Below, piece after piece: positions 1 to 34,900 of a stretch of DNA of 64,000 nucleotides. Source of the DNA: Blasia pusilla (lineage: Eukaryota); assembly GCA_050084515.1 (NCBI GenBank), contig CM114271.1:32550001-32614000 (forward strand), given 5' to 3'. Positions within the stretch are counted from its first letter, which is position 1. Each line of letters begins with the position of its first letter. Made by a program: the position numbers and the translations under genes. The notes beneath the pieces were generated by a model, which made no database searches, was not told where the DNA came from, and worked only from the letters and a program-made list of their open reading frames with translations.

Positions 1-59
1 GTGGCTAGGGTTGCTACATAGCAACCAAAGCCAGAGGTTGCGTCCTCTCCGAGTGAGAT

Positions 60-4392: not shown

Positions 4393-4695
<303 letters not shown>

Positions 4696-12384: not shown

Positions 12385-13433
12385 ATATATTGTGTGGATC
12401 CTTTGGTTGCCATTGCCGCCGTTACGGAGTGGAGGGTCTTCCATGACGTTCGTTGATCCTCTGACTTGCATCGCCACCATGTACTTTGTTTTGGCCACCA
12501 CCGTCATCACAATTTCGTCATCAACTAGTGATGAGCGATGACCTCTAGTTATGGTGTTTGAGTTGTGATTTCATGCTGCTATGTTGTGATTGGTAGCCAC
12601 TCGACGACAATCGAGTACCGTGTCGTGATGCTCGTAGCCGCAACGTGCCGCCGATTGCCGCGCCGTGCCGCTCATGGTCGCACCGCACCATCTCGATCAC
12701 GGAGCCGCACCGTCATTGTGGATCAGACTATGGGTTTATTGTTGATTGAGGAGGGTATGCCGCCGAGTGCCTCATCCCACCATCGAGGGCTGTGTCGTTC
12801 GTAGCCGTTCCGTGCCGCCTGCAACGCCGCATCGTTCCGCTAGAACCACACTGTCTATGGAGGAGTTTTGAGCAGCGTCAGTACGGGAGGAGTATGACTT
12901 GCTGATTAGAGGAGTTTAGTATCCACGACTGAGTTGGGGTTGAGATTTGCAGTTGCTAAGGAGCGACATCGACATGTGTTCACGTTACCCATTATGGTCC
13001 TTTATCCTGCACGTGTGAGGGATTCTGGGATTTGGATAGTGTATTTGGGGATACTGGGTGTGTGGATGCTGAGAGCATCATTTATGTATGTAGTTTAGGT
13101 GACATAGACCTGTGTGGGATGTCCGGAGTTGCGATTAGGATGTCGATGAGATGATAGCCTGGTCGATTTGCCCCACCACGCCGCTTGTTGCCGCACGTTA
13201 CACGTCTCAGGGAGGGAGAATGTAGATCAAGTGCCGCATGTTTGGGATGAATGATTGAGGGATTATTTGCGATGCGAGAGTGATCAGGTGAGAGGGGCAC
13301 GAGGGTCATCACGGCGTCTGTTCGGGACTTTGAGAGGCGAGGTGTTGAACTCGAGAGTAGCTCTAGAGGTTTTACGCGGAGTGGCGCGAGGTTCCGAGGG
13401 TCTCCATGTGAGGAACCACATCGACCTCCTTCA

Positions 13434-16400
13434 GTGTCATTGTCAGACATGGGAGAGGGTGTAGAGGAGTTTGTGAGCACATTGTCACATATTATGAGTG
13501 GTCCTACCGGTTGGGCGTACGAGATGGACGATCGGGGTAGAGGACCGCGTAGGTTTTCAGGTGCAGTAGGTACGATTGAGTTGCACGATTTCATAGCAGA
13601 GTTTAGGAGTTGGCGCGAGTCCCAGTGGGCCAGGAACTCTAGAGAGTTCAACCCGTTTACAACATGGAACGGTATATTCGAGCATTTAGAGGGGGCGCCC
13701 ATGGACGATTACCATGAGTTCTCTTAGAGATATGCACGTGAGATCGAGGCGAGGAGGCTCTACTATGACCCATATTATGTGTCATGGATGGAGCCATTCC
13801 CAGATGAGGAGGAGGAGTCAAGAGAGGCTACTTTCTCTTCCACTAGTGACGTTTTAGGAGGAGTCACTCGCACGGGAGCAGTTGCACCGTGTAGTCGGGT
13901 TTGTCCTAGGTTCAACCCTGTGGTTGAGTTCTTTGCTGAGTTCAGGTCAAGCTACCAGGGGGTACGGACATAGAAGTTGCAGAGCATCCATGATTTCCAG
14001 AGGCGCCCGGGTGAGAGTTTGAGTGAGGCTTACACTCGCGTGCGCCGGTTGATCAATGTTACTCAGGGGGTGACAAAGGCTCAGGCTATCGAGTCATGGT
14101 CGCGATGTTGGACCACACCCTGCGGACACGGGTGCGGGAGGGGGTGCTTCTTATGAACACCTCCCCTACGTTGAGAGATGTTTTTAGGACCACCGAGAAC
14201 ATTGAGCGCAACATGGCGGAGGAGAGCGTAGCCACCATGGGTTATGGGCGAGAGCAGTCGCGATTGTCACGCACCAATTGCGGCAAAGAACGTGGACTCT
14301 GAGATAGGTCGACTGTGGCACCATGAGCTCAGGGAGGATACCGGGAGGCCGTGCCGCAGAGACCTGCACCTTCATATGCGGCTCAGCAATAGCCGCTTAC
14401 TATTACTTGTTGGTCATGTGGTGGAGCCCATCATCAACGTGATTGCACTCGTCAGGGTCATGGACGTGTGCCTCAACATGGAGGAGGAGATGGTGCTGCA
14501 CCAGGAGGTTATCAATGTGACTATTTTAAGAGGTATGGTAATAAAATCAGCAAGTGTTTCAGTTTACATCCTGAGTTACGTCCGGACTAAGGGCCAAAGA
14601 GGGCACCAGAGCGACTAGCCGGTCCGGGTGGGCTAGAGATCGTGCACTAGGTGGTCCCGTCGGGGGATGAGGAGCTGGAGTTGCCCAACACGGTAGTGGA
14701 GCTGCATGTGGAGGAGGTAGAGTCCTACCACCTAGACAAGTCAAGGGAGATGGCGGACGTGAGGCTAGGATGGTTGCTCAGATACATTAGCTACAAGAGC
14801 AGATTGCCGCTATGGCATTGAGATTACCGCATGCCGGATCCGTGGCATCAACATCATATGGAGCAACTAGAGATATGGAGGATCTTGATTGGATGTGCGG
14901 GGTTGCCCTGATGGAGGCAGCTGCAGTTGTGACGCGTGGAGCAGCACAGAGTTGGATCCACAGCGAGGGGAAGCCAGGAAACAGACTAGGCTTCCTCAGT
15001 CTTTTACGTTGTCCGAGGCGATGAGGACCCCATCGATGGGTCCTAATCAGAGTTCTTGGAGAGTTGGTGATGTTGTTGGTGTGCAGGCATGGAGGGCGAT
15101 GGGAGAAACAAGTGCGACGACTCCTATTGTTGATGCTCAGGAGGGACATGTGTCAAGCACGTTGTTGGGGGCGGCGCTCCTTTATTTTCTGCTTCCGATA
15201 TTATGACATTGGGGGGTACGCCCGTTGAGGCTTTTCGGCTGGCCGCTACGCTATGTGAGCGTGGAGTTGGAGTTCCTGCATCACGTTCAGAGGTGATTGC
15301 AGTGGAGGTGATGGACTTGCCCTTGGAGCCAATGTCCGAGCCGTCCACGTCAGATTCATGGCAGACTATGGCTACTAGGATGGCGGAGATGCCCGCTAGA
15401 CCTGCGATAGAGCGTGCCATGGCTTCTCCTGGTGTTGTGTTGCTGGATAACGGAGGAGAGGTCTTCCAGTTGGTGAGTCTTGGAGGTAGAGCTTTTTGTC
15501 CGCAACGCATCTTGTTGGATTCAGGAGCGCAACCCCTAATTTTGGGGAAAGCATCATTCAGAGGATTGGGCTTGACGAGAGCCGATGTGGAGCATTGTCC
15601 ATTGCGGATATAGACATCCTTGGATGGAGCAAGTACCACACAATATATCACCCAACAAGAGGTCGTGATGAGGATTCGCCCGGGACATCCTACAGATGAG
15701 TCCATGGTGTGAGCCAAGGCGATAGTGACTGATGGAGAGTCCTACGACGTCTTGGTTGGTGGAGTAGCGTTATACCCGATGGGATTTGCCCTGGATTACT
15801 GGGAGGAGTCAGCGTCCTACAAACCATGATGGCAGTCAGGTGATTGGCGCCTTAGCTCATTACCCGTTCGATTCATAGGTGTAGTGATCGAGCAACGACC
15901 AAGAGAGATGGCAACCTTAGTAGCATTTAGTAGTGCCATCACTTGGCCTAGTGATTTGATTGAGGGACATATCCATGCAGAGGATACTCCCGTTCCTGAT
16001 ATTTCTATGGAGAGGAGTTTTATGGTAGCCGCATCATTCCGTAGAAGAGAGGTGCCGTTGTGGGGCTCGACTGAGGAGCTTTGACGATTGGCAGATGAGC
16101 ACGTGCAGACCGTGTGGAGCGAGGCGTTTGCACCAGAGTATGACGGGTCTGAGGAACCCGAGGTAGCAGGGAGTGCTACGATGACACCCTTGGATACCAC
16201 AACCATTGTGTGGTGTAGCTCGGAGGAGGGTATTTGAGTGTAAGATCTCTTTGGAGGGATTAGCACCGGGTTAGGTGCTATTTTGCAGGCAGGAGTGCGA
16301 GTACAGCAGTACGTGTATGTGGGGAGTGATGATGTTGCAAGGCGCGTCTCACTATGACATGTCGCGCAGTTACGCCTACGTTTTCCCGACTTATTTTCTG

Positions 16401-19400
16401 CATCCGCATGTGGGTACCAGAGTTCTCTACCGAGGGATATTTTGTAGTTGAGGGCGTAGGATTTAGAGTGGGTAGGGACCATTGATTTGGTCATTTTCGG
16501 TTAGCCATGTCGGGGCCAATGGAGTGTTGGACGAGGCAGTGGGTTGGCTGACACTCGATCCAGGTTTTTTTGGGAGATGTTGAGGGTCTTACGGTAGTTG
16601 CAGGAGCACCAATCTTGTTCTCCAGCCTACATTCTAGAGAATGTGCCAATCTTAGGAGACTCCAGGTCACGGGTGGTGATAAGTGCTCATCAGGTGCGTG
16701 CCTGGATCGGCTCAACAGTGTTCTTGGATGCGGCGAGTGTAGGTTCTAGAGCCCATCGCCCGCATCTATGGTGGACCAACTTGGTGCCCCATGCGGTGTT
16801 ATGGAGGGCGTATGGGAGAGTGGAGCATCCCTCCCATTTGTCAGTGGATTCCATTTTGGATCCAGGTCGTCGATCACAGGCAGTGAGGCACGATGATCGA
16901 CCACCATTGATTGTGGTCAACAGGGTAGGCAGGCCGTGGGCAGCCTTGCTCACGTTTGTAAGTTTTCGCGCTTCCTATGCATACAAGGAGTTTGCTCCTA
17001 GCTTGGTTTGGGATGACCAGGTTCAGTGGTTGGTGGAGCCCAACGCCGACAAGAGAGAGAGAGAGCGATGGGATTTCCCACAGGAGTGATGGCAGTACCG
17101 TTAGTGTCAGAGGCATTACGACGCCATGTCTTGGGTCAAGCGATGGACCTGAACTACTTGACATGGATCCTCAGCTTGGGAGTGGCTTAACAACGTAAAA
17201 TGAGATCGCGATAGATCGCATCGGTTGCGTTGGTGAGCCCCATGCCTACCAAGATGGTGGAGGCAGTGGCTGGGGGCGAGACCCGAGGAGACCTACACAC
17301 CAGGGGAGATCGAGAGAGACACCCTTGGACTTCTTGGGATGTTTTGAAGGTACGCCAGGAGATGATAGCCACAACATCGAGGGTGGTTACAGACACTACA
17401 CGTGGAGTTTGTAGTTGGTTGTAGGAGAGTGGCCGAGTGTTGTTGTTCGAGACAGGGTTGCACCATAGCAACCATCAATACCGTGGCGGAGAGTCCTACC
17501 GTAGTCACGATGGAGACTTGGGAGCCAGATATGGGCCCTAGGTTGACAGGAGGAGAGCGGCGCCGGATACATCAGTTCCTCAGGAGTTATAGGAGCTGGT
17601 TTGCGTTTAGCATGGAGGATTTGGGTACGTTGAAGGGACCCGGGATCCGCATTGAGTTGTCGAGTGATACGTCGATCTTCCGACGATCCTACAGGTACAG
17701 TGATATGGAGAGGGCTCTGATTCAGAGTAAGAGCCAGGACTTGGTCGGAGCAAGACTAATGGAGATGTTGCATGGGGAGTATGCATCTGCCACTATCATG
17801 CATGGCAACTAGACGGATAGGCGGATGTGTGGGGATTACCGACCTATCAATTGGTAGACAAAGTCCGATAGGTATGCCATGCCTACCCCTTAGGAGATCT
17901 TTGATGCGATTGATCATGCAAAGGTCTTCAGTTCATTGGATTTGGGAGCAGGCTGCCTATCAGATTGGAGGACAGGCAGAAAACGGCATTTTGGGGCATC
18001 GATCCTCACGGGAAGGATTTTTTGTACTAGTGGCGGTTCTTACAACTAGAAAGGACGCAGGGGGTGTCCTTTCTAGTTGCACATAGATTGGAGCATGTTG
18101 GGGCTTGGAGCGGTGCTCACCCAACATGATGATGAGGGTAGAGAGTTTGTGGTGGCTTACGCTAGCCGCTCGAACAACGCTGCAGAGGCGAAGAACAGCT
18201 TGTATGAGGGTGAGTGCTTGGCTGCGATGTGGGCTGTCTCACATTTCAGGTGTTACTTATTCGGCAACCCTTTACCATCATCACTGATCATCAACCACTG
18301 AAGGGGTATGGAGTCCGACAAGCTTAGAGGGAAGCTTGCGAGATGGGCTCTTTTGTTGCAGGAGTATGATTTTCAGGTGGTTCATAGACTTGGGACACTC
18401 AACCAAGATGCAGATGGGTTGAGTCGTGACCCATGCCTGAGTTAGCGAGATGCGACTGGAGCTTGATGGCATGGAGAGAGTGATGAGGAGTCAGTGCTAG
18501 GATGGCACGCGTCAGCCTATTTAGGCATGTTGGCTATGGAGAGCCATAGTGTGGAGACTTCGATGGCAAGGTCTAGTGGAGAGTCCTTGGATCCCGTGGC
18601 CAGTGAGGAGACGACAAGTGGTCAAGATATTCATGATGATGGAGTAGTCTTGGAGTACCTTCGTACTGGTAGCATTGCGAGCACCGTGGGTGCTAGAAAG
18701 CGGGATCGGATCCTACAATGGGCCAGACGGTTCCGTTGGGAGGGGACACATATTTTGAGGGTTTGGGAGGATGGTATAGTACGCGTAGTGCTGCATCCTT
18801 TGCAGAGAGCACGACTAGTGCAACATGCCCACGAGGAGTTGGGTCACTTTGGGGTGAAGCAAACGTACAACTTGCTCCAGATTCAGTATTGGTGGCGAGG
18901 CATGCAGACTAACGTTCAGCAGTTTGTTGCAAGGTGCATGGTGTGTGATCAGGTCCGAGCATCGTTCAATGCTCCGACACCACAGTTGCATCCATTACCG
19001 ATCATGGGCTTAGGGTATAGATGGAGTTTGGATTTTGCAAGACCTTTGCCTTTGAAAAGCGTCACAGTCATTTTGTGTTGGTGATGGTCGAGCACTTCTC
19101 AAAGTGGATCGAGTTGGTTGCATTGCCTGACAAAGTGAGTGAGGGAGTAGCTTATGCCTTCCATGACAGAGTGTTAAGTCATTATGGCGCACCGGCTGAG
19201 GTGTTGACAGACCAGGGTACCGAGTTTCGCTGTGAGGTCCAGGCCTTGTGTGATTAGGCGCTGATCGACCATCAAACGACTTTGCGAGATCATCCTGAGA
19301 CGGATGGATTAGCGGAGAGAGTTGTGTAGACGGTGAAGAGGAATTTATGCAAGTATGGCTTGCAGAGAGGTCACCTAGGAGATTGGGACCTCCAATTGAT

Positions 19401-20067
19401 GTGGTTGGCGATGGGATACAGATTTAGCAGGCAGACATCCTTAGCTTCTTTTTCATGGTACTTGCTACTTTATGGTCTAGAGGCAGATTTACCTTCGGCC
19501 ATTCGTCAAGATGCTGGTGAGGTGCTGGACCTTGATAACCCAAATGTATGGATTCGAGCATGTTCTCAGAGGGCTGAGTTGTTTTGGAGAGTGATGCCCA
19601 TGGCGTTTGAGAACTTGGCAATTGCGCAACATAGGGATACGTTGAGGTAAGCGACTATTCGCGGTGGTGGTTATCGACCAACTATCCGGAGGTTTCATCA
19701 GAGAGATTATGTCTACTTGCAGCAGACGGCACCGACAATGTTGGATGTGACTGGAGGACGCACTATCCTGAGAGTGCGTGACGTTTTGCCATATGGTGTT
19801 CTCTTGCTGGGGGGACGCGATTCTATGGTATGGAAGGACCATGTGCGTAATTTTGCGCCATGTCACCTTCCTAACATTGATGGTACATTAGATCCGAGCT
19901 TAGCAGTAGTTCCTGCACGCTTGCGTTGTATGTTGTGTGGTTCTGCCCGTGGTGCGGCTATGATGCTAGTATATGATGGATGTTCGAGAGGTTGGCTTGT
20001 GGCATGTCTGACGCCATCTCTCACTAGGGTTCCTCGGAGACGATGGATGTGTCCCAGATGTACATAG
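13434..20067 (+). pseudogene. Degenerate gag-pol of copy 2
   Basis: Gag (RFSGAVGTIELHDF; CWSCGGAHHQRDC), protease ILLDSGAQP, methyltransferase, RNaseH, integrase (HEELGH..CMVC; LTDQGTEF) and PHD (CMLC...WMCPRC). Confidence 0.9.
16190..17190 (+). pseudogene. DNMT3-like C5 cytosine methyltransferase domain, copy 2 (disrupted)
   Basis: DLFGGISTG, DLVI..PC, YILENV, RAHRPHLWWTN, GFPTGV and HVLGQAMD motifs with stops. Confidence 0.88.
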
Positions 20068-20253
20068 AGGAGATAATAGGGAGGTTTCAATTCCTACTTT
20101 TCCTTTGACATGGATGATAGGAAGGCGACTAACAATGGGGCCACCTGAGCACCTGGCCTTTTGCTCTTAGCGTTCTAGAGATGTATGTCGTGGTAGGTAG
20201 AGATAGAGGGCTATCTGGAGTTAGAGGGACCTAACCACCAACTATGGGGGCGA

Positions 20254-20380
20254 TTGGAGATATTTTAGTACTTCTTGTCTCGTTTTTTGGATGCCATGAG
20301 TTAGCATAGGATCGTGCGTGTTTGTGTGTGTGTTCGGTGACAGCGATGTATGTTGTGTAGCAATGTGTATGCGTACGGTA
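20254..20380 (+). repeat. Repeat B1 of copy 2
   Basis: Direct repeat of 20901-21029; follows the G-tract ATGGGGGCGA. Confidence 0.93.
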
Positions 20381-20382
20381 AC

Positions 20383-20899
20383 TATCACGTCTTTTAGGAA
20401 AGATCAATGAGATCTAGTAGAGCGCCTTCGTGAGTAGTCGAGGACAATCTCAATAGGTCGAGGATAATCTACTGAGGCCGCGGGAAACTTGAGAGAGCAG
20501 GTTTCCCCTTCGTTTCGGCTCATTTGGAGCCATATTGAGAAACTTACTATTTTAGGTAAGTACCATTTTGAGTATATGATAAACTTTATATTTTTGGTAA
20601 GTGGCATTTGACCTCCTACATCAGGTCAAGAGCCAAGGAGGTGACTTGGGAGAATAGGTTACCATTGGAGAGAGTTTGGGAGAGGGGAGGGGTATACCTA
20701 AAGGAGAGAGAGTTTGAGAGCTCATTCTCTCTTTGTTGAACCTCTTGGCATAAGGTGGCGGACCTATGGTCCCTTGCCTTGTGAATGTAACCCAAGCCTC
20801 TCATTAGGAGAGTGGGTTTGGTTTGACATGAGAGAGAGAGTGCACACCTTTGAGAGCTATGGTTTGAGATGGTGTCGAGAGAGATTGGATCTTACTTTA
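20383..20899 (+). repeat. Repeat A2 of copy 2
   Basis: Repeat of A1; full-length match to 54893-55380. Confidence 0.93.
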
Positions 20900-20900
20900 A

Positions 20901-21029
20901 TTGGAGATATTTTAGTACTTCTTATCTCGTTGTTTGGATGCCATGAGTTAGCATGGGATCGTGCGTGTTTGTGTGTGTGTGTTCGATGACAATGATGTAT
21001 GTTGTGTAGCGATGTGTATGCCCACGATA
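20901..21029 (+). repeat. Repeat B2 of copy 2 (3' terminus)
   Basis: Repeat of B1; ends CACGATA. Confidence 0.93.
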
Positions 21030-21033
21030 GGGG

Positions 21034-22222
21034 CAATACAAACCAAAACTCCTCAAAGGGTGGAACATTGGATGCATAATAGTTGCAACTCCAAGCTGAG
21101 CAATGAATAGAGGTTGCACAAGATGCAAATGGGGGCGTGGTGTCAAGTTGATAGATGGAGTTGCACAGACAAGGGGATTTGTAAACGGGGTCATATGAGC
21201 CTAGAGTTGGGTTTGCTATGGGAGCTAGGGGGAGGCAAATATAGGTTGATGGAGCCTCTTTATGTGGGTAAGCTCGATGGATTCCATAAAGCCAAGTACG
21301 TGAGTGCAAGCTTATAGGAGATGCAGGTATGTAGTCCGCATGGGTATAGTCGTGGTGAGTTGTAAGGGGTAGGTACAATCATGTGGATCTACGTAGTCAT
21401 AGATCGCTGTAAGGAATAAGTATACAATAAAAAAGGAGTGATGGGGCATGGACAGAGTGAGGATGTTGAGGGGGTGTGTACACGTAGTCATAGTGATAAG
21501 AAGGTACAACCTTGAGTAGGAAGTAGAGGTACACCAAGTATGGTTTGTGTAGGGGGTGCAAGTCTAATGGAGTAGTTGAATATCGTTGATCGTGATGGCA
21601 TGGCTGCACAACCTAGTTCGGCATTGCAACGAGGTTCCAGGGCTAAGTGAGTACCGCGAATGTGGTAGGGGTTTCCAACTTGGTTTTTTACCAACCTACC
21701 CAAAATATTTTGGCATAACATTTTCGGTCATGTTGGGACTTACCTACGTGGTCCAACTTGTGAGGTTGTCATCGATGGTGAGAAGTTTTTGGGCATTTTT
21801 TTTGAAAAGAAATTTTACGTATGATTGTCTTATCAAGATACTAGGTGTGTGTCATGTGCAAGAGTCAGTCGCTCCAAGATGTACCAACCCACCCAAAGTT
21901 TTTGATTGAGTGTTGAGTTTCTAATACATTGTAGACATATATCAAGATGAGTTATCCGCACCCATGATCCACGACAAAGTGGTAGAGGTGGTGACACACA
22001 TTTAGATCCTAATAGGTAGTACACATTTACAAATAGGAGATTCAACAAGGTTGTTATGCTACGAAAGTTTTTGCATTGTATAGAGCAATTATTTTTATCT
22101 TACAGAGGAGCAGTGGTGTGCTTGTTTAGATTGGATGGTCAATAGGTTACCCCAAGAGGGGTCTTGTTATGACTTGATGTTCTTGCTAGCTTAGGTGAGA
22201 TAATATGAGAGGCTTAGGGAGA
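21034..22222 (-). mobile_element. Possible very old L1-type LINE remnant between copies 2 and 3
   Basis: Minus-strand SKTLGGL (cf. the L1 ORF2 PKxxGGLG motif) near 21890; otherwise highly decayed. Confidence 0.3.
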
Positions 22223-22226
22223 ACAC

Positions 22227-22332
22227 TGTCGTGCGAATCCACATCGTCATACAACATACATCGCTGACATACCATACGCACATACATACATAACATAGAC
22301 GAGAGTATCCACAAACGCAAGTGTACCACAAC
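22227..22332 (-). repeat. Repeat B2 of copy 3 (3' terminus)
   Basis: Near-identical to 22704-22808. Confidence 0.95.
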
Positions 22333-22696
22333 TGAAATCCGTGAAAGACCTACTGTCATAAAACACGTTTACAATCACATACAATCGAGCCAAACCCACT
22401 CCACGATGGGAGAATCCAGGTTAAGCTTGGAAACACCATAGCCAAGAGCTCTACTCACTACCAAGGCTAACTCCCAACGAATAACAGGCTCAACTCAAAG
22501 AATGATCGTTCTTTGAGGGCAAGCCACCTTATATCCTCCAACCTAAGAGCGGGCCCTACTAGGAAAGTCACCCCAAGTGAGTAACCCCAACCCTATGTAT
22601 GGAACCACATCTCTACCAAGCCACTATGATCCTACATAAGGAATGGCCTCTACCAAAGACACCATACTCTACGACATAATCCGTATGGTCATGACA
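22333..22696 (-). repeat. Repeat A2 of copy 3
   Basis: Near-identical to 31587-31956. Confidence 0.95.
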
Positions 22697-22699
22697 ATT

Positions 22700-22808
22700 T
22701 GTCGTCGTGCGAATCCACATCGTCATACAACATACATCGCTGACATACCATACACACATACATACATAACATAGACGAGAGTATCCACAAACGCAAGTGT
22801 ACCACAAC
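22700..22808 (-). repeat. Repeat B1 of copy 3
   Basis: Near-identical to B2; preceded on the sense strand by TTAGGGGGGCGA (22809-22820). Confidence 0.95.
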
Positions 22809-22980
22809 TCGCCCCCCTAACTGGCGGTTAGGTCCCTCTAACTCCCAGGTAGCCCTATACATCTACTACATGCTATACACCTTCTTGGGTGCCGAATCAG
22901 AAGGCCGGGTGCTAGGTTGCCCCATCGTTAGTCGCACATCTGTAATCCATATCATGCAAAGATCAAGTCATCTACCTCTC

Positions 22981-25900
22981 TTAAGTACATCGAGGACAAA
23001 CCCACCTTCCAGTAGGAACAACATCCAAACGTGGAGTCAAACACATCATGTGCCAACCCCTAGAACACCGATCACACACCAACATACGGGCTGCGTTACC
23101 AGCAGACCCACACAACATGCAGCTAAAGCTAGCACGTATCATGGCTAAGCTTGGGTCAACAGTACCATCCACATTTGGAAGATGACATGGCGCACAATTA
23201 CGCACATGGTCCTTCCAAACAACTCCATCACGACCCTCCAACATGAGAACTCCGAAGCTAACACCTCACGCACTTGTAAAATAGTGCGGCTGCCGTCACA
23301 TCCAACGCGTTGTCGGGCAATCTGCTGCAAATAGACATAGTCCCCACATGGAACCTACGAATCGATGGTCGATAACCTCCACCCGAATGGTTGCATACCG
23401 CAACGTATCCCTGTGTTGAGCAATGGCAAGATTCTCAAAGGTGTTGGCATAACTCTCCGAAAAGAGCTCCCGCACGAGAACACACCCTCATCCACATCTC
23501 TCGGGTCATCAAGGTTCACCACCTCACTAGACTCCCGACGCAATTCGCTTTGGCAAGTCCGGATCTCGGCCGTATAATGTAAAAATAAGGTGAGAAGGAA
23601 GCCAAGGATGCTTGGCGATCGAACCTATACCCCATGGCTAACCATGGCAACCGAATATCCCAATCTCCAAGATGCCCCTTCAGAGGCCATACTTGCGCAA
23701 TGCCCTCTTCACCGCCTGAACCACACGCCAGCCAAACCATCCGCCTCTAGATGATCTCGAGACGTGGTCCGATGATCAATCAACGCTTGTCACACAAGAC
23801 TTGAAACTCATCCGAAACTCTGACCTTGTCGGTCAAGACTTCAGTGGTGCACCAAAATGACTAAGCACTCTATCCGAAACGCATACGCCGTTCCTCACTC
23901 GCCTTGTCCGGTAATGCCACCAACTCAATCCACTTGAGAAGTGCTCCACCATCACCAACACATATCGATGATGTCGAAATACCAACGGTAACGGTCCCGC
24001 AAAGTCCACACTCCAACGGTAACCCAACCCCATAATAGGCAAGGGGTGTAATTGTGGTGTAGGGGCATTAAATGATGCCCTCACCCGGTCACAAACCATA
24101 CAACGTGACACCAACTGCTGCACCTGAGTATGCATGCCACGCCACCAATATAGGCCAAGGAGTAAGCTATACGACGCTTTACCCCAAAATGTCCCAACTC
24201 CTCATGGGCATGTCGCACAATGCGCTCTCTCGAGCCAAATGTGGCACTACTCGTACTCTACCATCCTCCCACACGCGGAGAATATGTGTTCCCTCCAATC
24301 GATACCTCTTAGCACGTTGAAGAACACGGTCTCGCTCCTTGGCACTCACTATGCTTGGCACCCTACTGGTCCGTAGGAACTCCAACACCAACGCATCATC
24401 ATGAATATCACGTTGATCCGTACCACCATCTCCAACCTTAGGATCTCAAGGTGGCCATCTACCCTCGACTAGAGTAAGATATCATGTGGTCCTCCATACT
24501 AGAGTCCACCTAACCAACATAAAAAGGCGGATGCATGCCAACCTGGCACCATCTCCTCATCAACCTCGCCATGCCATCTAGCCCCTATTGTATCCTCTTG
24601 GCTAGTACATGGGTTCCTACTCAACCCATCAAAGCATCAAGGTTGGCAACCCAAGTCTATGTACCACCCGGAAGTCATACTCTGTAAGATAAGAGCCCAC
24701 CGTGCAAGCTTCCTGTAAGCTTGTCCGACTCCATCAACCACTTGAGCGGTTGGTGATCGAATAAGGGTAAACGGGTGCCAAACAAGTAACACCTAAAGTG
24801 TGCCATGACCCACACTCTTGCCAAGCACTCTCCCTCATATGAACTATAGCGCGACTCACTGCATTATTCGAACGACTTGCATAGGCCACCACAAACTCCA
24901 TGTGCTCATCATCATGTTGTGTCAACACCGCTCCAAGTCCCAACCTACTCCAATCAGTGTGTCATCTGGAAATGGGCGCCCTCTCATAGGTCTCCTCAAG
25001 ATAGGCGCCGCCACCAACTGGGCCTTAAGCTCCACAAAGCTCTCTCTGATCATCTCCCAGTGCCACTCTTGATCTGGTTTCAGCAATTGATTCAAAGGCT
25101 TTGCCATAGCACTAAATCCCTTCACATACCTCCGATAGTAGTTCGCCAATCCCATGAATGCTCGAACTCTACTCACATCTACCGGACGCGGAATAAGTGC
25201 AATAGCCTCCACCTTTGCTTCTTTGAACTCCCAAACCACTGGATAGATTACATGACCCAAGTACTCAACATCCTCATGGAAGAACTTACACTTACTTGGA
25301 TGCAAACGTAGACCATGAGCTTTCAACCGCTCAAACACCATCTGCAAATGTATCTGATGCTCCTCCACCGTGTTACTGAACACCAAGATATCATCAATGT
25401 AACACGGAACAAAATCCAACACCGCTAGGATCCTATCCATCACTCTTTGAAACTCGGCAGATGCATTCTTCAACCCAAAGGGTAAGAATTTCCACCGGTA
25501 CAAACAATCCTTGCCATGAGAGTTGACACCCCAAAATGTTGTCTTGGCCTTGTCACTCTCCCGAATCGGCAATTGATGGTATCTGCCGAAGATCCAAATC
25601 TGAAAATCTTTGCATGTCCCACCACATCAAAGATCTCCTCAGGTGTAGGCATGGCATACCTATCGGCCTTGGTTTGCCGATTGATAGGACGGTAATCTCC
25701 ACACATCCGCCTATCCGTGTAGTTGCCATGCATATCCTTTTTAGAGCATGACAGTGGGCGATGCATACTCTCCATGCAACAACTCCACTAATCCAGCCTC
25801 CAAAGGTCCAACGTCCTACTCTGAATCAAGTCCCTCTCCATATCACTATATCGGTAGGGACGACGGAAGATTGGCGTATCACTAGCCAAATCAATCCGTA

Positions 25901-28900
25901 TACCGGTCCAACCAGAGAACCCAACTCCTTCATGCTAAAGGCAAAACAACTCCTATGAGCACGTAGGAACTGTGTCAGCGTCGTTTCTCACCTCCCGTAA
26001 GCTTGGGCCCAAGTAATGGCTCCCAAGTCTCCTCCTTTGGCACACTAGAGGGAGAGGACGATGCCATTGGTCGCACGCAACCCCCTCACAAGATGGTACA
26101 CCCTTAGCTACACCATGATCTCGAGCAAATAACTCCTCCACCAAAGATGAGCAACCAACTCCACATGCCCGGCCATTACATCCCATCTACTCCAAGGATG
26201 CAAAATACTACTCTCCTCGCTTGACCGATGCCTCTACCGTCCCGGTAGCCATCGAGCTTATTACAAGGGGTGGAAGACCCACAGACATAGTCCGAAGTCG
26301 ACACCGCTCGCCATACCAAGACTCAAAATCCAAGTCAAACACCCAGGTCCATGGCCTGACCCAACACATGACGTCATGAAGCCTCGTAAATAGAAGCAAA
26401 TTTGTCACACCAATAGCAAATCCCATCATGACGCTCTCTCTCATCAGCGTTAGGCTCACCAACGCCGCACATGAGAATCCCATACAAGCCGCGACCACCT
26501 TCCTCGTAGGCATGTGACGAGGGAAAACTCACAAATGTGGGTAGTGCCATCCTAGGTGGCCCACACGGTTCACCAACGCCATGGGTGACCGATCAATAAC
26601 CCTCACCACTTGAGAAAGTCCCAATATTCAAGATACTATCCTTTGTGAAGGCGAGGATCATTGCCTTTGACGCCTCATATGCTCGACGTAGAACCTCCTA
26701 GGCAACAAGTTTGTCCACCACAAGCGTGGGCGATGTGCACGCTGAGCCAACTCCAGCATCCAACAACACCGCTGGTCCAATCCAAGACCGCACTCATGAA
26801 CACTCGCCATCATCCGGTTCGAGTGTCACCCAACAATGGAACATTCTCCAAAATGTAAGCTAGAGTACGTGCTCGATGAACTGAAGATGTCGTAACACCT
26901 GTAACATCTCCCAAAACAATCGAGACCTAGGGTCATGTAATCCCTCACCACGACCAGCATGTGTATGACCCTGACATGGCCATCTAGCAATCACCAAATC
27001 CACAGGACCAACCCTCTCAAGGTCCTGTGCCCCCAACAATGCAATGTGTGATGGTAAAGCACGCTGGTACCCACGAATAGCGATGGCGGCAACAACTCAG
27101 ATATCTCCGCATCAATCGACCAATATGTCGGGATGAGACTCTGGGCCGTCTCATCTCGCTCCACATACACGTATCTCCGCATAGGAATACCGGCCTGCAA
27201 CACTGCCGCCAAACCAGTGCTAATCCCACCAAAGAGATCTAACACACAAATGCCCTCCAGCAGATATTGCCATACAATGGGTGTAGTATCCAAAGGGAAT
27301 AACCCAACTGGGCCAGAAGTAGGAGTCCGCCGTGGGGCCTCCTCTTCCTCGTGAGGTATAACAACCTCACACCAAGCCTCCTCGCACTAGGCGACGCCTC
27401 TGCCGTAGTGCACCGCTTGAACTCCAAAGTGGCACATCCAACGATGAGGATGCCACCTTTGCTGCAAAAAAATAGGGACCTCCTCTACCTCCTCATGCGC
27501 AGGAGAATCCATAGCGAAACATTACCCTCCAAAAGTCTCCTGCCAAGTGACTACTCCACTAAAACCACCACGATGCTAACACTGTTGGGGAAGACCTCTG
27601 GTCGAGCCCCGTAAATAAATCTCATAGGAACTTGGCTCATACGTCCATCCCGGACTGCCAACCAGGTCTCAGAAGAAGATTTGTCTCGACCCAAGTAATC
27701 CATCTGAAAACCCATCGGTACACATCGCTCCTCCAACTAGTACATCATACGACTCGCCGATGTGACTACATGCAGATACTCCCAACCGGAGCTATCGGGT
27801 CGCATGATCTGGTCTCAACTGTACAGAAAACTTTTCCCGTGTCATGAATTGAGACCTATCATTGGCTCCTCCAAGTGATGTTTGAATGGAATGGGCAAGG
27901 CTCAAGCTCGACCTCGAATACCCAAACCAATACATGCCGCCTTTCCCAACATCAAGGTTGGGCACCGAGTCTAACAAGACTCTATCTGGTCTATACACAT
28001 CTGTAGGACTCACCAATCGGAAGATCCACTCCGGTTGTCCAACATACATACACCAGTGTAGCCTCTCACGATCAATGGTGGCCGGGTGGTAATGCATCCA
28101 TCTTCGCCGCCGTCGCCAAGTATCACCGGGTACTCAATGCTACTTGACATAGAGGGTCGCTCCACCGCAACACCCTCATCCACCTCAACACGTAGCAAGA
28201 ATAACACCCCACGTTCACACAACGTGGTCGCTAATCAAATACAAGAGCTAAGTCAACTCCTAAAGCCATCAGCTCCGTGGCCGAAAACAATGGGGATCCC
28301 AACACTGAAGTTGCCATCCGCAATACTGCATTGGATGTTGCATCCGTGTCTACTACACGCGATGTAGATGCCTCAGTCCCCACTGTCGGCTCAATAGGCT
28401 GCGTAGGAACCATGGATGGAGTCCTAAGCACCTCAAACAACAAGAATGATTGGGGAAGCCTAGCATGCCTCCCAGCCTCACCCCTCTATGGGTCCAACTC
28501 CACAGTAGCACCACGTGGCTCTGACGCTCGAGTGGCTCCTCTCAGAATCGCACTGATGGTGATCCTCAACTTTGTCTTGCACTCGCCATATAAGAGAGAT
28601 CATCCCTCCATAAGAGGTGGAAGCCCCTGCTCCCGAACTCCGATCTATCTTTGGATACCACCATAGTAGCCAACTTCTGCTCCAACTGCTCAATCCTGGC
28701 AGCCATAGCTGACTCTGTCGTAGTGGTAGGGGTAGCCACCGTAGGCTCTCCAACCACTGGTCCACCTCTACCACCCCTACCACCTCTACCACCTCGGCCT
28801 CTCGGAGCTACTCCACCACGGCCACGGCCTGATCTCAACTCTGGATGAAGATCAAAGCAACGCTCTCGAGGATGACCTAGTCTCCCCGCAATGATCACAC

Positions 28901-29990
28901 TGAGTTGGGGCCGACGAGGCCCATCCTCCAAAGTCCGTCTCCCATCCTCTTGGGGACAAAACTTCCTAACATGATCACCTCCACATGTCCAACATGATTG
29001 TCCTCTTTGCGGGGCAGCAAATGAAGGCAATGGTCTCTGCACAAATGTCCTCTAGGACTTGACTAAGGTCGCGTGTACCCCACGACTCCCACTACTACTA
29101 CCACCACCACTACTACGAGACTGTGAGGTGGGCGGCTGAACAACACGAAGTAGTAGTTGTATCCCTCTTGAATGCGGATGTCATCACTCTCTCCTTCACC
29201 ATGTTAAGCTCAATCTTCTCAGATAAAGCAAACACATGGGTCAATGTGGGTGAATCATCACTCATAAGAGTAGCATCACGTACCCTACTGGCGCAAATCT
29301 CGCCCAAGATCCCTAACAAAACTAGACGCTGATCCTCAATCACACCCTAGGTAATCGAAATCAAGCATCGTGATACGAGTGTATGCCTCACTTAAGACTC
29401 TCACCGTCTTTCGCTCAAAGTCCTGAAGATTCCTCAACTTCTCCGTCTTCACTCCATGATAGTTCTTCTTCAACCTCTTGAAGAACTCTGCAACCGGCTG
29501 AACGATGGTGGGGCACTAGCCCCCACTAGTACCCCACTAGTACCTCCACGGTACCCCCCACTCCGACTGCACTCGTACCACTCAACGTCGGGCCGGGGTG
29601 GCATAGTAGGAGCACTACTACCAATACCACCATGGGTGATAGACACATAGCCAGGAGACCAATATTGTCTCCATGCCTCAATCTCAAAGAACATGGTCCT
29701 TCCTAAACTCATGGTAATCATCCATGGGTGGTCCTTCCAAGTCTTTGAAACAACCCTTCCAAGCCAAGAAGGGTGTAAACAACGCGTGCGTTCCGCAACA
29801 TCTGCATATCACACCACGTATCAAACTCTTGCATGAAGTCCTCCAACTCAATGGTGCCCATCGCACCGAGTATCGTCATGGGCCCTTCATGGCCCCATAT
29901 CCACATCCATGTCCCAAATCAATGGAGCGCAACACTTGATAACAACGTAGAAGACTCGGTGTTTGGAACACCTGGTCCTCCTCTTCATCA
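22981..29990 (-). pseudogene. Frameshifted gag-PR-DNMT-RT-RH-INT-PHD of copy 3
   Basis: CWTCGGDHVRKFC knuckle plus RGG tract, VLLDS protease, VLDLFGGISTG, CYIDDILVFS, SVDFAGP and CMLC..CDRC..WHMMC..CPRC. Confidence 0.92.
26320..27293 (-). pseudogene. DNMT3-like C5 cytosine methyltransferase domain, copy 3
   Basis: VLDLFGGISTG, YVYVERD, DLVIARWPCQG (catalytic PC intact), ILENV, AHRPRL and VLGQAMD, read across frameshifts. Confidence 0.88.
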
Positions 29991-31586
29991 ACCGTCGGAA
30001 GTGGAAAAGGTAGCCGATACCTAAATCACTCCGTGTGAAACCACCACATCCGCACTACGGTCCCCAACCAGACCACCCGACAAACTCGTGATGACCAACG
30101 CCGATGCCGCACCACCACCAAATTACCCAAGTGACGCCGATGTCGCTCTACTATTGTAGCTCTACTAGCTATGGGTGTAGGCAATCTAACCTCTCATCAC
30201 CACAAGAAGTCTCCCACAGTCTATTGGTCATCACTCCAGCCCCACTATCAGTAGCACACAGGAGTAACACTACTCCGAAATCAACGCGTAAACCCTAACA
30301 ATGGGCGGCAAGCAAGAAGCACGATGGAGGGGATCCAAACACGGAAATCCAACGACAACCCTCCAATCGCAAATGGAAATCAAGGTAACACAATCCACCA
30401 AACGTGGTGCCCCTCGAATCCACAAAACCCACCACACAATTCTAACGCATAATAGCTACTCGCCGGCCTGGTCGATGACATGCTAGTTTAACGCGCAAAG
30501 ACCTGAAAATATCACTGAATGGAGAGGCTACACCGCACTATGCGCTAGAGGTACATCAACCAAAAACCTGAGATGCATAAAGCGCCTAACACATCTCCGA
30601 ACAAAGACCAAATGAGCTACAATAGTCTATGCACCTTTGGCATAGTTAAGAACTCGGCATTAAGCGCCCTCCAGCGAGAATAGCCCAAAGATGGGTGACA
30701 GTTATGCAAAACTCAAATCCCAAATCCTGCAAAAATTTCCTCACGCCCAAGCAAGCAAGCAAGCTTGCTTGCTTGCTCCTTGCTCCTTACTCCGCCTCTC
30801 TCGCCCCGAGCTACCACGAGTTGCCTCGAAGCCTCGAATGCCGAGAAGTGCTCGAGACATGCCCGTTCTCACACGCTCGCCATGCTTCGCTATGGAGAGA
30901 GGTCCAACCAGGGCGCCCCAATGGGATAGGCGTCTCCAACAATGAACGAGTCACCAACCAACCAGCCCCTCCGATCCCGCCCACCATAGCGGACCTTGAG
31001 CTAGTCCGCGAAATTTCGATCAAAATTACTTCACAAATACGTGACCGAAATCAAATCTGTTTCGATCAGAATTCAATTGACCACCATAGCTATCTCTCCA
31101 TAGAAAATCAGCTACAACCGAGCTCAGACTCGAGCTAAAAATCAAACAAACTTGTCTGTCCATACACCTCCGAATCGCAAATCCAAAAGCGCTTCGCCAA
31201 GTTTCATGCACGCAGAAATCCGCAACGCTCCACACACTCGGCAGATAGATTCACGGAGATCACAATATGAGTAGCAACAGAACCTCTCACCCGATCTGGA
31301 TGAACTTCAACACGCTTCGCGACTCCAAGCTCTCCACATCGAAAACCGCCGAACACGACCAGAATCTTCAATGCTTGATAACTTCCAACTCCTCGACGAA
31401 ACCGCGATCTACAGCCGCGTTGAAAGCTCTCAAAAGGCGCTTCTTTCCCAACAAACGCGCACCAGATTCACACCTCCAACATAGGCCACAAGCCACAAAC
31501 ATCCACGGCTGAGTACACAATCGGCCCTAACCAGATCCTCTTGATCTACAATCGAAGCTACTATCGATCTACTCCGGTTCTTTGAG

Positions 31587-31956
31587 TGAAATCCGTGAAA
31601 GACCTCTTGTCATAAAACACGTTTACAATCACATACAATCGAGCCAAACCCACTCCACGATGGGAGAATCCAGGTCTAAGCTTATGGAAACACCATAGCC
31701 AAGAGCTCTACTCACTACCAAGGCTAACTCCCAACGCACGCACAAAGCTCAACTCAAAGAACTGATGTTCTTTGAGGGCAAGCCACCTTATATCCTCCAA
31801 CCTAAGAGCGGGCCCTACTAGGAAAGTCACCCCCAAGTGAGTAACCCCCAACCCTATGTATGGAACCACATCTCTACCAAGCCACTACGATCCTACATAA
31901 GGAATGGCCTCTACCAGCACACCATACTCTACGACATAATCCGTATGGTCATGACA
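31587..31956 (-). repeat. Repeat A1 of copy 3 (5' terminus)
   Basis: Repeat of A2; not followed by B on the sense strand. Confidence 0.95.
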
Positions 31957-34900
31957 ACACAAGTGTTTGAATACGTGAGGAAGGGTTGTTGTTACAAGAT
32001 AATCATAAATATAGGAAAGTTGGTTAGGAGTGTGGAAGACTTAAGGTGAGTTTGAGTGCTTGGGCGTATGAGGCGGGATATCATTATGACGTTCAGAAGA
32101 ACGAGGTAGTTCGAGGAGTTGTGAGGGAGTTATATGGAGTGGAGTGAGATATCAATGGATTTCGTCCAGTGGTCGTGGGGTGTATGATGGGATAGTGAGA
32201 TCGACTATACCCACACCTTCAAACCAAGAAGTAGAGGGAGATGATGTCATATATGGTAATGAGGTGGTAGAGACCTTTGGTAGTAGACGACCACCTAGTT
32301 TCAACTCAATGGTGAAGTTCATTTGAGAGTTGTGGAATAACTTCCAAGGTGTGCATACTGACAAGCTAAAGAGTACATGATTTTTAGCAGAGATTAAGTG
32401 AGAGTTTGTGTGAGGCATTCATGCACATGCATCGGTTGATCATTGGTAGCTATCCATGGAGTGACAGAGGCCAAAACATTACCTCATTTAAGACATTTGA
32501 GCTTGAGGGATGATCCATACTCGGGAGACGTAAGGTTGGTTGACATGGCTAATATGAGTGTGTTTGGTAGTAAATCAATGATGAGATCACGACTCGATGA
32601 ATGCAAACTTTTGTGACACACAAGATTGTCGCTCAGGACCATAAGTGCATAACACTAGGACACACACATACACACATGGTTGTGCATGTTGTTATACTTT
32701 CTAGATCTTATCAAAACCTTTGACCTGTGGGTTTTTTTTATTTTGAGTCCTCTATTTTTCCACTTAATTGTTTTGACATTTGAAATTTAAAGGTCCCCTC
32801 CCTCTTTGAAAAACCATAAGTGGTGCTTCTTACCTTCATTTCTTTACCATTTTCTTGTCCTCTTTATGGAGATGGGCGACTCAAAAAGGGTCCTCGACAT
32901 GCCATTGGGGGATAGTGGGTGGCGAAAGCTTTTCATGATGTGTGGGAATACAAGGAAGTCCATAAGGATGACACATCAATCAAGAGGAGTCGTCAATTCC
33001 ACATGGCAAAGCTCTGTGGGAGTTTTGGATGCATGCTTCTCCGATAAGATTGTGTCTATATCATACAATCCTAGGATGGTATGGATAGCAAGATCATTGT
33101 TGGACAACATCAAGAACAAAGGCCATCTTACAATCATTGTGAGAAGCCATAAGAGAGTCACGCTGCAATCACAACACAACCACAAGAGTAAGTAGTTGCC
33201 ATTATTGATGGTCACAAAATGCCCTCATCACATTCACCGTATTCACATATTTCCATAAGATTATTTGCAGTGTTTCAGATTCAAGATCACTGGACTTCTG
33301 GATTACAATTGTTTCCACAAACTGGAGAGGGAGGAGAGAAGGGGGGTTAGGATAGCCAAGCAATACATTAAGCATTCATATTTGGTACATGGTGTTAACA
33401 ACATGAGATTGCCGTTGTCACTAATGTTGATACAAGAATTGCACTCATTAAAGTCATTTTTGTATGGATGGAAAGACTCCAAGGGTATGAGCATGCAATT
33501 CATTTGTATTTGAATCCCATGTAGAAGGAGAAGCACAAATATGGGATTCTCCGCAAATAAGCAATTGATAAATAGAAGAAGAATTCGAGTGCCAAATAAA
33601 TCCTTGTAAGGGTCAACATTTCCAAGCTACAAAAGTTCTCTCACCATTCTAGGCAAGTGAGCAATTGAGACAAACGAGAAGAAAGCAAGTGCCAAAAAGA
33701 CTGCTGCCTTCCCTGCTTTTCCATGACCCACAACTGATTTCTCATAATTTCTCGATATTATTTTTCACTGCAAATATGAGAAATGTGCCCATCCGGACAC
33801 ATCACTTATAGTCCAAAACTCCAAGTTTCAATCCACCACACATTTACCCTTTGAATCTCTTGCTTTCTAAAGCTGCACCTAAAACAGTTGTGAGGCTCTT
33901 TGCCAGGGAAAGCCACACAATTGGCTCTTCAATGTACAATGCTCAGCAGCATAACCCTCAGGCAGCGTTCTTGAATAGTGTGGAGGAATCTGCCCTCCCA
34001 TTAAGGGACATTACAGAGACCAAAACTCAACAACTGAATCATCCGTGAAGAAGGGAAGCCAGTCCAACACCCCCACTTCTTAAAGGTGCTTTGGATGGTA
34101 CACTGCTACTGGAAATCCTGCATCCACGAGGTAAGAGTTTAGTAACTGCTATGAGAGCTTTTCTCCTGCGTCACAACAGCCACAACAAAGTTAAATTCAC
34201 AAAATTTCAGCAGGCATAGATCTTTATCCTACACCTGCACACATTTAATACTTCCGTGCTATTCAGTCTCCTGGTCAAAGCGTATACAAACAAGGAAAAG
34301 TTACCAGTAGGTCGGAGCCACTGTGGCAGCACGCAACACAGTACTCCTCATAGAAATATCTGAAAGTGCAATCGTAGAATTCTTCCTGTGAATGTGCAGC
34401 GGCAACAAAATCATCATAAGTCTTCCTGATCCAATCTTAAACATCTTACAGAGGAAAAGAAGGGAATCAATGAATGAATGAATGATTTGAACTACTTTCG
34501 TTGGATTTTCCACAAATGGAGGTGGTTCAGAAAATTTCTATCCAATATTAAATGATATAGGGTCAGGTTTATTAGTTTGAGATGGGCAAAGAAACAGTCC
34601 CAACTAGACTCGAGAGAAAAACAAAGTGGAGAATAGTCACAACCAGAAAATCATTTGACGGATTTCATTCAATCAGTGTGAGTTGAACTTACTTTATAAT
34701 CCTTGAGAAACGGTTATGGGAAACCTTCCACATTGCATATGTCAGGCTCCGTCCACCACCATGTGTCAAGTTTCTAGGCTTAGACTCCCCATGAAGGAGG
34801 ATTGATTTAAGCGCAGGACTAGGACACTCTTTTCTCCAATTGTTCACCCAGGAGCATGGCCAAAGTTCACCCAGGCTGCAGGCTCCTGGACTGTACATCA

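Follow-up and report, generated by a model that had tools for sequence, protein, structure and literature searches.

It has already been reported that a Ty3/Gypsy-type retrotransposon can carry a repeat order usually associated with another class of elements: KnitGypsy-Dnmt3 of Klebsormidium nitens has DIRS-like repeats together with Gypsy domains (de Mendoza et al. 2018, Fig. 4c legend, PMC5890265), the same study defining the DIRS arrangement as A-coding region-B-A-B, and a 2026 preprint names 'streptophytes (Gypsy-DNMT3)' (bioRxiv 10.64898/2026.05.21.726589). Here we analyse a stretch of 64,000 nucleotides (nt) from the liverwort Blasia pusilla (assembly GCA_050084515.1, contig CM114271.1, positions 32,550,001 to 32,614,000), hereafter the window, which holds four decayed copies (copies 1-4, or W1-W4) of one retrotransposon lineage, copies 2 and 4 belonging to one family and copy 3 to another. 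As far as the text of the 2018 paper describes it, the algal element shares with them a Gypsy long terminal repeat (LTR) organisation, a DNMT3-type methylase inside Pol and DIRS-like repeats (PMC5890265); the differences are the host, a charophyte alga instead of a liverwort, the decay of the window copies, and a PHD finger, which our elements have and which the main text of the 2018 paper leaves unmentioned ('PHD' occurs 0 times, PMC5890265). The layout itself is, therefore, not new, being in print for the algal relative, a point on which an initial annotation of this DNA, made from the sequence alone, overstated the case. It has never been explained: in a literature search that took in the main text of the 2018 paper and not its supplements, the sole mention of the layout on a DDE element was the 2018 legend, and we found no published explanation of it, nor any account of target-site duplications (TSDs), of the positions of the primer binding site (PBS) and polypurine tract (PPT), or of a palindrome for Gypsy-DNMT3 elements. 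By this search and to our knowledge, Tf1-like reverse-transcription signals, palindromic integration ends inside the LTR and a repeat joint made of joined reverse transcriptase (RT) termini are not in print either.

The same split direct repeats, in the order A1-internal-B1-A2-B2, are found in the PAT, Ngaro, TOC1 and kangaroo elements, and there, as here, a circular or joined-end intermediate is the natural reading. DIRS-order elements insert without target-site duplication. The elements described here, instead, have 4-bp TSDs and TG…CA ends, a DDE integrase with no tyrosine recombinase in the frames scanned, a Gypsy-type RT, and a PBS and a PPT placed at the A and B boundaries.

With regard to priming, self-priming has been predicted for plant chromoviruses of the Tcn1 clade (Neumann et al. 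2019, PMC6317226), and the likeness of our elements to Tf1/sushi and Tcn1, which is one of sequence signals, lies in the lack of a tRNA-type PBS and in a sequence after U5 (the unique 5' region) able to pair with the 5' end predicted for the transcript (PMC6317226). On the other hand, here a PHD finger stands in the place of the chromodomain, a DNMT domain is added, and the ends of the integrated copy differ from those of the LTR that the RT signals define. As for integration, retroviral integrases (foamy virus, HIV-1 in vitro) cleave the palindromic LTR-LTR junctions of 2-LTR circles (PMC1180852, PMC1905944). In retroviruses the palindrome arises where the LTR termini meet, and this route is a side path. 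In our elements, by contrast, the palindrome lies inside the RT-defined LTR and is apparently the only integration site used. Common to both are two abutted CA…TG ends a few bases apart, one DDE enzyme and two transferable 3' ends; the circle junctions of insertion sequences of the IS3/IS30 type likewise abut two ends.

Repeat order in the window and in independent insertions

In the following, A and B are the split direct repeats, x is the spacer between B1 and A2, and A|B is the direct joint of A2 and B2. Copy 3 reads, in sense order, A1-PBS-internal-PPT-B1-spacer-A2-B2, and the features that define this order are the following:

31957-31960, minus strand: 5' target-site duplication GTGT (sense)
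31587-31956, minus strand: A1, with TGTCATG at its start and TTTCA at its end; TATAA about 30 nt before the self-primer segment
31752-31776, minus strand: hairpin CTCAAAGAAC-ATCA-GTTCTTTGAG within A1
31753-31762, minus strand: proposed self-primer and RNA 5' end, the right arm of the A1 hairpin
31577-31586, minus strand: PBS CTCAAAGAAC, adjoining the 3' end of A1 and complementary to 31753-31762
22809-22846, minus strand: conserved PPT block (G-tract) GGGAGTTAGAGGGACCTAACCGCCAGTTAGGGGGGCGA, directly before B1
22704-22808, minus strand: B1, GTTGTGG directly after the PPT, CACGAC at its end
22697-22703, minus strand: B1-A2 spacer GACAAAT, 7 nt
22333-22696, minus strand: A2, with TGTCATG at its start and TTTCA at its end
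22227-22332, minus strand: B2, its GTTGTGG start fused to the end of A2, CACGACA at its end
22223-22226, minus strand: 3' target-site duplication GTGT (sense)

The element thus starts with TGTCATG and ends with CACGACA, so that the ends are TG…CA and the terminal inverted repeat is short (TGTC…GACA), and it is flanked on both sides by a perfect 4-bp duplication, GTGT on the sense strand and ACAC on the plus strand. In the self-comparison of the window, A1 (31587-31956) and A2 (22333-22697) are 94.6% identical over 373 columns, and B1 (22704-22809) and B2 (22228-22333) 99% identical over 106 nt. The PPT block ends with GGGGGGCGA, to which the GTTGTGG of B1 follows, and A2 adjoins B2 exactly, with zero bases between them. 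The self-comparison and the readout of both ends bear out the layout and the ACAC duplication that had been proposed for this copy. Sequencing runs (X numbers) were found by means of window positions 21900-23300, and four of them were mapped on 21900-32300 at a likeness of at least 90%: a 506-nt contig of X3 covers 22304-22809, from the start of B2 through A2 to B1, and gives independent support for the order in copy 3, while the DNA contigs of X1 and X8 are short (about 80-160 nt) and none bridges B1-A2-B2.

The other three copies are located as follows:

1-4381, plus strand: copy 1, its 5' part outside the window; short form, PPT (to 4244)-B (4245-4381)-flank
12002-21029, plus strand: copy 2, different family with the same 3' layout; A1 at 12002-12384, internally deleted
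20217-20252 (PPT), 20253-20380 (B1), spacer AC, 20383-20899 (A2) and 20900-21029 (B2), plus strand: 3' end of copy 2
54893-64000, plus strand: copy 4, of the copy-2 family, cut by the window end; A at 54893-55380, self-primer at 55204-55219, PBS at 55380-55395

Copy 2, also delimited as 11998-21029, whose A and B are largely different in sequence from those of copy 3, had been assigned the same layout. This holds for its 3' end, B1-AC-A2-B2. Its A1 has lost roughly 870 nt relative to copy 4, and since the deletion took the A1/internal boundary, copy 2 is uninformative on whether B follows A1; its flanks, GGGA and GGGG, match at 3 of 4 positions. Copy 4, 87% identical to copy 2, does begin with an A that no B follows, as first noticed: an unrelated flank is succeeded by A (54893-55380) and then by CAAAGAGAGAATGAG rather than B. 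The 3' end of copy 1 is PPT-B-flank, without A2-B2; a few bases past it, 4390-4695 is taken up by a long microsatellite of compound type, (GT)n followed by (GA)n. Copies 2 and 3 stand tail to tail, about 1.2 kb apart (21030-22226).

To extend the comparison beyond the window, metagenome contigs were scanned with an alignment of ten Pol relatives; of 335 pattern matches 132 were confirmed, and the best 80 loci (L numbers) were kept. Self-comparison was carried out on 24 of these 80 loci, and the A and B of six elements were then mapped onto all 80 loci and the window, which gave A/B matches in 20 loci among the best 80 of the 132 confirmed. Contigs with common flanks were merged into one insertion (L003 = L013; L035 = L039 = L031). 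All the 10 independent 5' ends (W2, W3, W4, L003, L035, L041, L009, L033, L006, L010) have A only, placed after an unrelated flank, with B neither before nor after it, and in 8 of them a PBS is recognisable directly after A. At the 3' ends, B-x-A-B was found in seven elements (W2, W3, L003, L035, L041, L018, L026), B followed by flank, the short form, in six (W1, L005, L009, L033, L023, L061), and A-B that has lost B1 through internal deletions in two (L021, L060). In five of the seven elements with both ends visible the 4-bp duplication is perfect, and in the other two it matches at 3 of 4 positions, so that the TSDs reported for copy 3 are a real feature of these insertions:

W3: GTGT, perfect
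L003: TCTC, perfect
L035/L039: CATA, perfect
L041: AATC, perfect
L009: TGTG, perfect
W2: GGGA/GGGG, 3 of 4
L033: GGTA/AGTA, 3 of 4

The window copies and their metagenome relatives therefore have several attributes of Ty3/Gypsy elements, namely termini of the TG…CA type (TGTCA…GACA) with a TSD of 4 bp, 4-5 bp being the rule in that group, and a PBS and a PPT beside the repeats, but lack two identical LTRs at the integrated ends. In particular, the ordinary paired LTRs that would have reduced the pattern to an accident of this locus were not found at the ends of the independent insertions. Because the same order recurs in independent metagenome insertions it goes beyond chance, and the permuted layout is a trait of the lineage, neither recombination nor misassembly; that A-PBS-internal-PPT-B-x-A-B is its genuine genomic form is well supported. 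No A/B repeat pairs were found in L001, L002, L034, L038 and L040, contigs that probably end at or near the repeats and are hence uninformative.

A1 and A2 show no systematic differences, their identity being alike in the U3 (unique 3') part and in the R-U5 (repeat and unique 5') part, in line with both being remade in each cycle. A separate inheritance of A1 and A2, which a DIRS-like model would permit, was considered and rejected, as no alignment column splits A1 from A2 in all three of L003, L035 and L041. We also observed that A2 starts with TATCA and A1 with TGTCA in L035/L039/L031, L041 and window copy 2 (20383), the reverse being true in L003, and that the six single-base differences between A1 and A2 common to two elements are all C/G in A1 and T/A in A2; the cause may be that A2 decays faster or that the first bases of the two are systematically different.

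Priming signals, integrated ends and transcripts

In four families unrelated in sequence, A is followed immediately by the reverse complement of a segment that it contains 160-234 nt further upstream:

W3, arms 31577-31587 and 31752-31762: 11 nt, 100%, gap 164 nt
W4, arms 55380-55395 and 55204-55219: 16 nt, 100%, gap 160 nt
L001, arms 9019-9038 and 8835-8854: 20 nt, 95%, gap 164 nt
L025, arms 4531-4546 and 4281-4296: 16 nt, 100%, gap 234 nt

In W3, L001 and L025 the self-primer segment also forms a hairpin with a PBS-like copy just upstream, and the hairpin sequence is present in nearly all the aligned A copies, several of which carry decay substitutions, while two have it deleted or truncated. 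Predicted RNA folds pair the self-primer segment with the PBS and close the whole domain, with z-scores of -1.95 (W3) and -4.86 (W4) that add little independently, the sequences having been picked for complementarity. The complementarity of self-primer and PBS, kept at a conserved distance, covaries across the four families, the 5' end of the transcript being itself predicted from the TATA box. A by-eye reading of window copies 3 and 4 found no TGG…, the mark of a tRNA-type PBS, after A or after B1. At the other boundary, copies 1, 2 and 3 as well as the metagenome loci have, immediately upstream of B, a block some 37 nt long that is terminated by GGGGGGCG(A) and conserved across families. In the standard two-jump scheme of reverse transcription the positions of PBS and PPT set the limits of the LTR. 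With the PBS after A and the PPT before B, the RT-defined LTR is thus B-x-A, its outer limits being the first base of B and the last base of A. Judged from these sequence signals, the elements' sequence suggests canonical reverse transcription with Tf1-like self-priming, and the unusual step is most likely integration rather than reverse transcription.

The two ends of the integrated copy, where A starts and B ends, face each other across the spacer of the B-x-A joint and lie inside the RT-defined LTR. The spacer x is GC in L018, L026, L045, L039 and L031, AT in L003 and L041, TC in L035, AC in W2, and a 7-nt variant in W3. With a GC spacer the joint reads GACA-GC-TGTC, a perfect 10-nt palindrome, and GACAGCTGTC or a one-mismatch form of it occurs about 110-165 nt past the G-tract also in the distant relatives L001, L002, L025 and L040, which apart from this have unrelated A and B sequences, L040 being only 35% identical to P0143, an intact relative described below. 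If both strands of the palindrome were cut after CA, two recessed CA-3' ends with 2-nt 5' overhangs would remain, the usual substrate of an integrase.

The A2|B2 joint fuses the last base before the PBS to the first base after the PPT in W3, W2, L035, L041, L026 and L018. In L003 (10838-10857, equal to L013 2670-2689) it contains 17 filler nt, which partly repeat nearby A sequence, and B2 is longer by 3 nt at its start, these being the final CGA of the PPT block, as expected if termini made by RT are joined imprecisely and not copied. A further structure is the snap-back in L045 (3235-3880), which reads internal-PPT-B-GC-A(whole)-CTCAAAGAAC-reverse complement of A (about offset 194 to 1)-flank and ends …GGTCATGACA directly at an AT-rich flank. 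It points to a plus strand that ended at A and a copy of the PBS and folded back on the self-primer segment, and its end, …CATGACA-3', indicates that the integrase end sequence can be used wherever it is located.

The RNA reads of run X24 have their first mates mainly on the plus strand, which in most stranded libraries means minus-strand (sense) RNA, and reach a depth of 80-147 over the 3' third of the element and of 13-60 over its 5' part. Thirty-six of them join 31956 to 22226 with a G between (B-GC-A) and 14 join 31956 to 22225 (B-GT-A); transcripts of the family thus carry the palindromic joint, and there is at least one organism in which members of the family are transcribed. Among the X24 RNA reads no A|B joint is listed, and one X1 DNA contig has such a joint. 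Depth is 8.5 in the bin that holds the distal A2 and B2, compared with 80-147 immediately upstream of it, a value to be read with the caution that mapping favours A1 over the more mutated A2 and that the RNA ends are predicted positions; the low depth suggests that most transcripts end inside A2 and that B2 and A|B are remade in each cycle. As separate observations, 42 and 79 RNA reads (at 22809 and 22845) are of copy-3 type as far as the PPT, beyond which they pass into the start of a copy-2-type B or into other internal sequence, so that the expressed members seem to be mosaics of modules from different families, and 14 RNA reads skip 1025 nt at 23441-24467 with 39 other letters between, which appears to reflect an expressed relative with a replacement or deletion in the integrase region.

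Coding content of the lineage

Copy 3 is heavily decayed, with 130-151 stops per sense frame, and was scanned against Pfam in its three sense frames with stops read as X (E<=0.01; E<=0.001 for P0143). Its coding remnants are:

28566-29051, minus strand: gag remnant, CCHC zinc knuckle (CWTCGGDHVRKFC), motif read by eye
26341-28413, minus strand: protease-like region and decayed DNMT3-like C5 methylase (core 26416-27057)
24647-25910, minus strand: reverse transcriptase (24970-25910) and RNase H (24647-24961), frameshifted and with stops
22987-24711, minus strand: integrase (H2C2 about 24076-24174; DDE core by homology) and C-terminal PHD finger (22987-23121)

The Pfam matches were RVT_1, RT_RNaseH, Integrase_H2C2, the C-terminal PHD and, upstream of RT, a weak C5 DNA_methylase, with the Pol order RT, RNase H, integrase. 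An intact relative, the 1516-aa polyprotein P0143, gave eight matches comprising DNA_methylase, RVT_1, RNase H, Integrase_H2C2, rve and PHD. The rve core was recognised by Pfam in this protein and by tblastn on copies 1-4, and tblastn located the domains of the lineage on all four window copies. A DDE integrase on a Ty3/Gypsy-type element, as first proposed, is thus confirmed by Integrase_H2C2 in copy 3 and by rve and H2C2 in P0143. The absence of a tyrosine recombinase also stands, within the scope of the scans: no match to such a family, Phage_integrase included, was found in the three sense frames of copy 3, the opposite strand being outside the scan, nor among the eight Pfam matches of P0143, the gag region of intact relatives being likewise outside it.

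What the initial annotation had missed are the two domains that identify the lineage, the DNMT3-like methylase and the PHD finger. The DNA_methylase match is clear in P0143 and in P0127, and the methylase part of P0143 has its best PDB matches in the catalytic domains of DNMT3B/3A/3C (E about 1e-6). The closest named proteins, which by themselves make a liverwort the most likely host, are from Marchantia polymorpha (73-74% identity, with RVT and DNA_methylase) and also from Calypogeia fissa; among the farther RT relatives, at 40-46% identity, several bear a chromodomain and one, at 41%, is named Tf2-7 polyprotein. It is well supported that the four copies are decayed streptophyte LTR retrotransposons of the 'Gypsy-DNMT3' type, comprising gag, protease, methylase, RT, RNase H, H2C2/DDE integrase and PHD, an assignment made by domain content and by the DIRS-like layout on Gypsy domains; equally well supported is their insertion by a DDE integrase with 4-bp target duplications. 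As regards base composition, the GC content of the four copies is about 45-53%, against 31-41% in the flanks, and a sense-strand skew of G over C of 0.18-0.30 was observed in all of them (window 1-6000, 12000-22000, 22000-32000 and 56000-64000).

Origin of the permuted form

What the sequences show directly is that insertion is of the DDE type with its ends at the palindrome, that the other pair of boundaries bears the PBS and the PPT, that the A|B joint is exact, and that RNA contains B-x-A. To account for them we lean, if only slightly, towards the view that the integrated copy is a 2-LTR form opened by the integrase at the internal palindrome. Transcription would begin some 176 nt upstream of the end of A, the RNA would fold its 5' end back on the PBS adjoining A and prime the minus strand, and the PPT adjoining B would prime the plus strand, giving as RT product a linear cDNA [B-x-A]-PBS-internal-PPT-[B-x-A]. 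The integrase would ignore the RT-made termini and recognise, instead, the palindrome halves inside the LTR (…CACGACA-GC-TGTCAC…). The RT-made termini, the end of A and the start of B, would become joined, whether by being ligated to form a 2-LTR circle, through a template switch from one end to the other, or through end joining by the host once one site had integrated; the integrase would cut both strands of the palindrome in the PBS-proximal LTR and insert the two CA-3' ends 4 bp apart. The product would be A-PBS-internal-PPT-B-x-A|B, circularly permuted at the palindrome, with B-x-A inherited through RNA and A|B remade in every cycle. The short A-internal-B copies could derive from the cutting of both palindromes, from the cutting of a 1-LTR circle, or from a later B/B (or A/A) deletion, and would be unable to replicate, since without A2 the 5' end would not be regenerated. 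The wider proposal that GACA-GC-TGTC is the sole integration site, that a joined-end intermediate is obligatory and that every copy is a circular permutation of it is tentative, and in our judgement falls somewhat short of an even chance. Of the hybrid replication strategy suggested initially, the topology is retained, the circle being the same as in the PAT/Ngaro model, whereas reverse transcription, with its PBS and PPT, looks ordinary.

Several points weigh against the opening of a 2-LTR form. The joining of the RT termini is deduced from the anatomy of the junctions alone, no circular or concatemeric DNA having been observed, and we know of no Ty3/Gypsy integrase for which the cutting of an internal palindrome has been shown. 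The permutation A-B-x-A-internal-B is found at 0 of the 10 independent 5' ends, though a symmetric 2-LTR circle predicts the two at about equal frequency; a bias-free symmetric model is contradicted by this count. The asymmetry requires the assumption either of a preference for the PBS-proximal LTR, which might be captured first because it would be double-stranded first, or of a fast A/A collapse of the alternative form, whose 340-nt repeats, 117 nt apart, would quickly reduce it to the short form, in keeping with 7 long to 6 short; the short forms may also be plain deletions. Moreover, A|B is precise in 6 of the 7 long-form elements, which is tidy for end joining and needs a clean removal of the RNA primer. 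L001 (8544-9040) and L025 (3619-4546) read, between two internal regions, B-x-A followed by PBS and 5' leader, as an ordinary LTR would; these contigs may have been assembled across the A repeat, or may stem from tandem copies or from a circle. Concerning the transcript, both RNA ends of the model are predicted positions, reads mapped at a likeness of 90% or more stem from family members and not necessarily from the copy 3 locus, and the only pile of RNA fragment ends (19 of 56) is at 31795, an A offset of 162; this position is immediately in front of the TATA box and precedes the start that the model predicts, with which it does not agree. This pile may be due to clipping at an indel or to a poly(A) site, of which the latter was set aside, because the RNA would then be without A 163-194 and without a terminal repeat.

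The repeat order, typical of DIRS-type elements, might instead reflect a DIRS/PAT-like route, in which, as has been proposed for PAT/Ngaro elements, B1-x-A2 would be the template that bridges the incomplete ends of the transcript and closes the cDNA into a circle, and in which the DDE integrase, in place of a tyrosine recombinase, would open the new B|A closure and insert it; the circle so predicted is topologically the same as a 2-LTR circle, and the B-x-A that it calls for is present in RNA. We regard this as unlikely. A covarying PBS/self-primer after A and a conserved PPT before B point to two-jump LTR synthesis, for which a bridging template is needless, the plus strand of the L045 snap-back ends at A and a PBS copy, and the elements have neither a tyrosine recombinase nor a DIRS-type methylase in the domain matches obtained, while the nearest outgroups of their RT are chromodomain-bearing Gypsy proteins. 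Still different would be the case in which A·B (TG…CA) is the true LTR and RT makes a linear A-internal-B-x-A-B by an unrecognised scheme, for example with B as the terminal repeat, so that the integrase would act on ordinary termini. The inverted repeat TGTC…GACA, the TSD flanking A·B and the precision of A|B in those 6 of 7 elements would fit, but we consider it very unlikely, given that none of the 10 5' ends has B after A and that 8 have a recognisable PBS directly there; that the end of B and the spacer are not purine-rich and hence offer no plus-strand primer at the start of A; that B2 lies beyond any PBS and has low RNA depth; and that we could construct no strand-transfer path by which B2 would be copied. 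An artefact of the locus, be it misassembly, nested insertion or recombination between ordinary LTR copies, could be suspected from the decay of all the window copies and from the shortness of the DNA contigs mapped on it, yet is hardly credible when two window families share the order with 5 more independent insertions that have separate flanks and TSDs, when an independent 506-nt contig covers B2-A2-B1, and when the same layout has been reported for Klebsormidium.

Liverwort genomes and many environmental contigs contain the lineage, and LTR-finding programs built to look for a pair of identical terminal repeats will set its limits wrongly or overlook it. Its DNMT3-like methylase and PHD finger bear on the interplay of transposons with host chromatin marks. 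Since family members are transcribed, what the model predicts for cDNA ends, circles and palindrome cleavage lends itself to bench experiments, and the elements, whose textbook reverse-transcription signals could not directly yield the integrated ends observed, offer a natural test case for whether an integrase can act on joined LTR ends; they may also explain the origin of the split direct repeats in DIRS-order elements. If the wider proposal, of a sole palindromic integration site and an obligatory joined-end intermediate, is true, these would be the first natural retroelements to use the long-discarded 'circle-junction' route as their main pathway, and the PAT/Ngaro layout would be a 2-LTR form opened inside the LTR, reached independently by tyrosine-recombinase and DDE elements.

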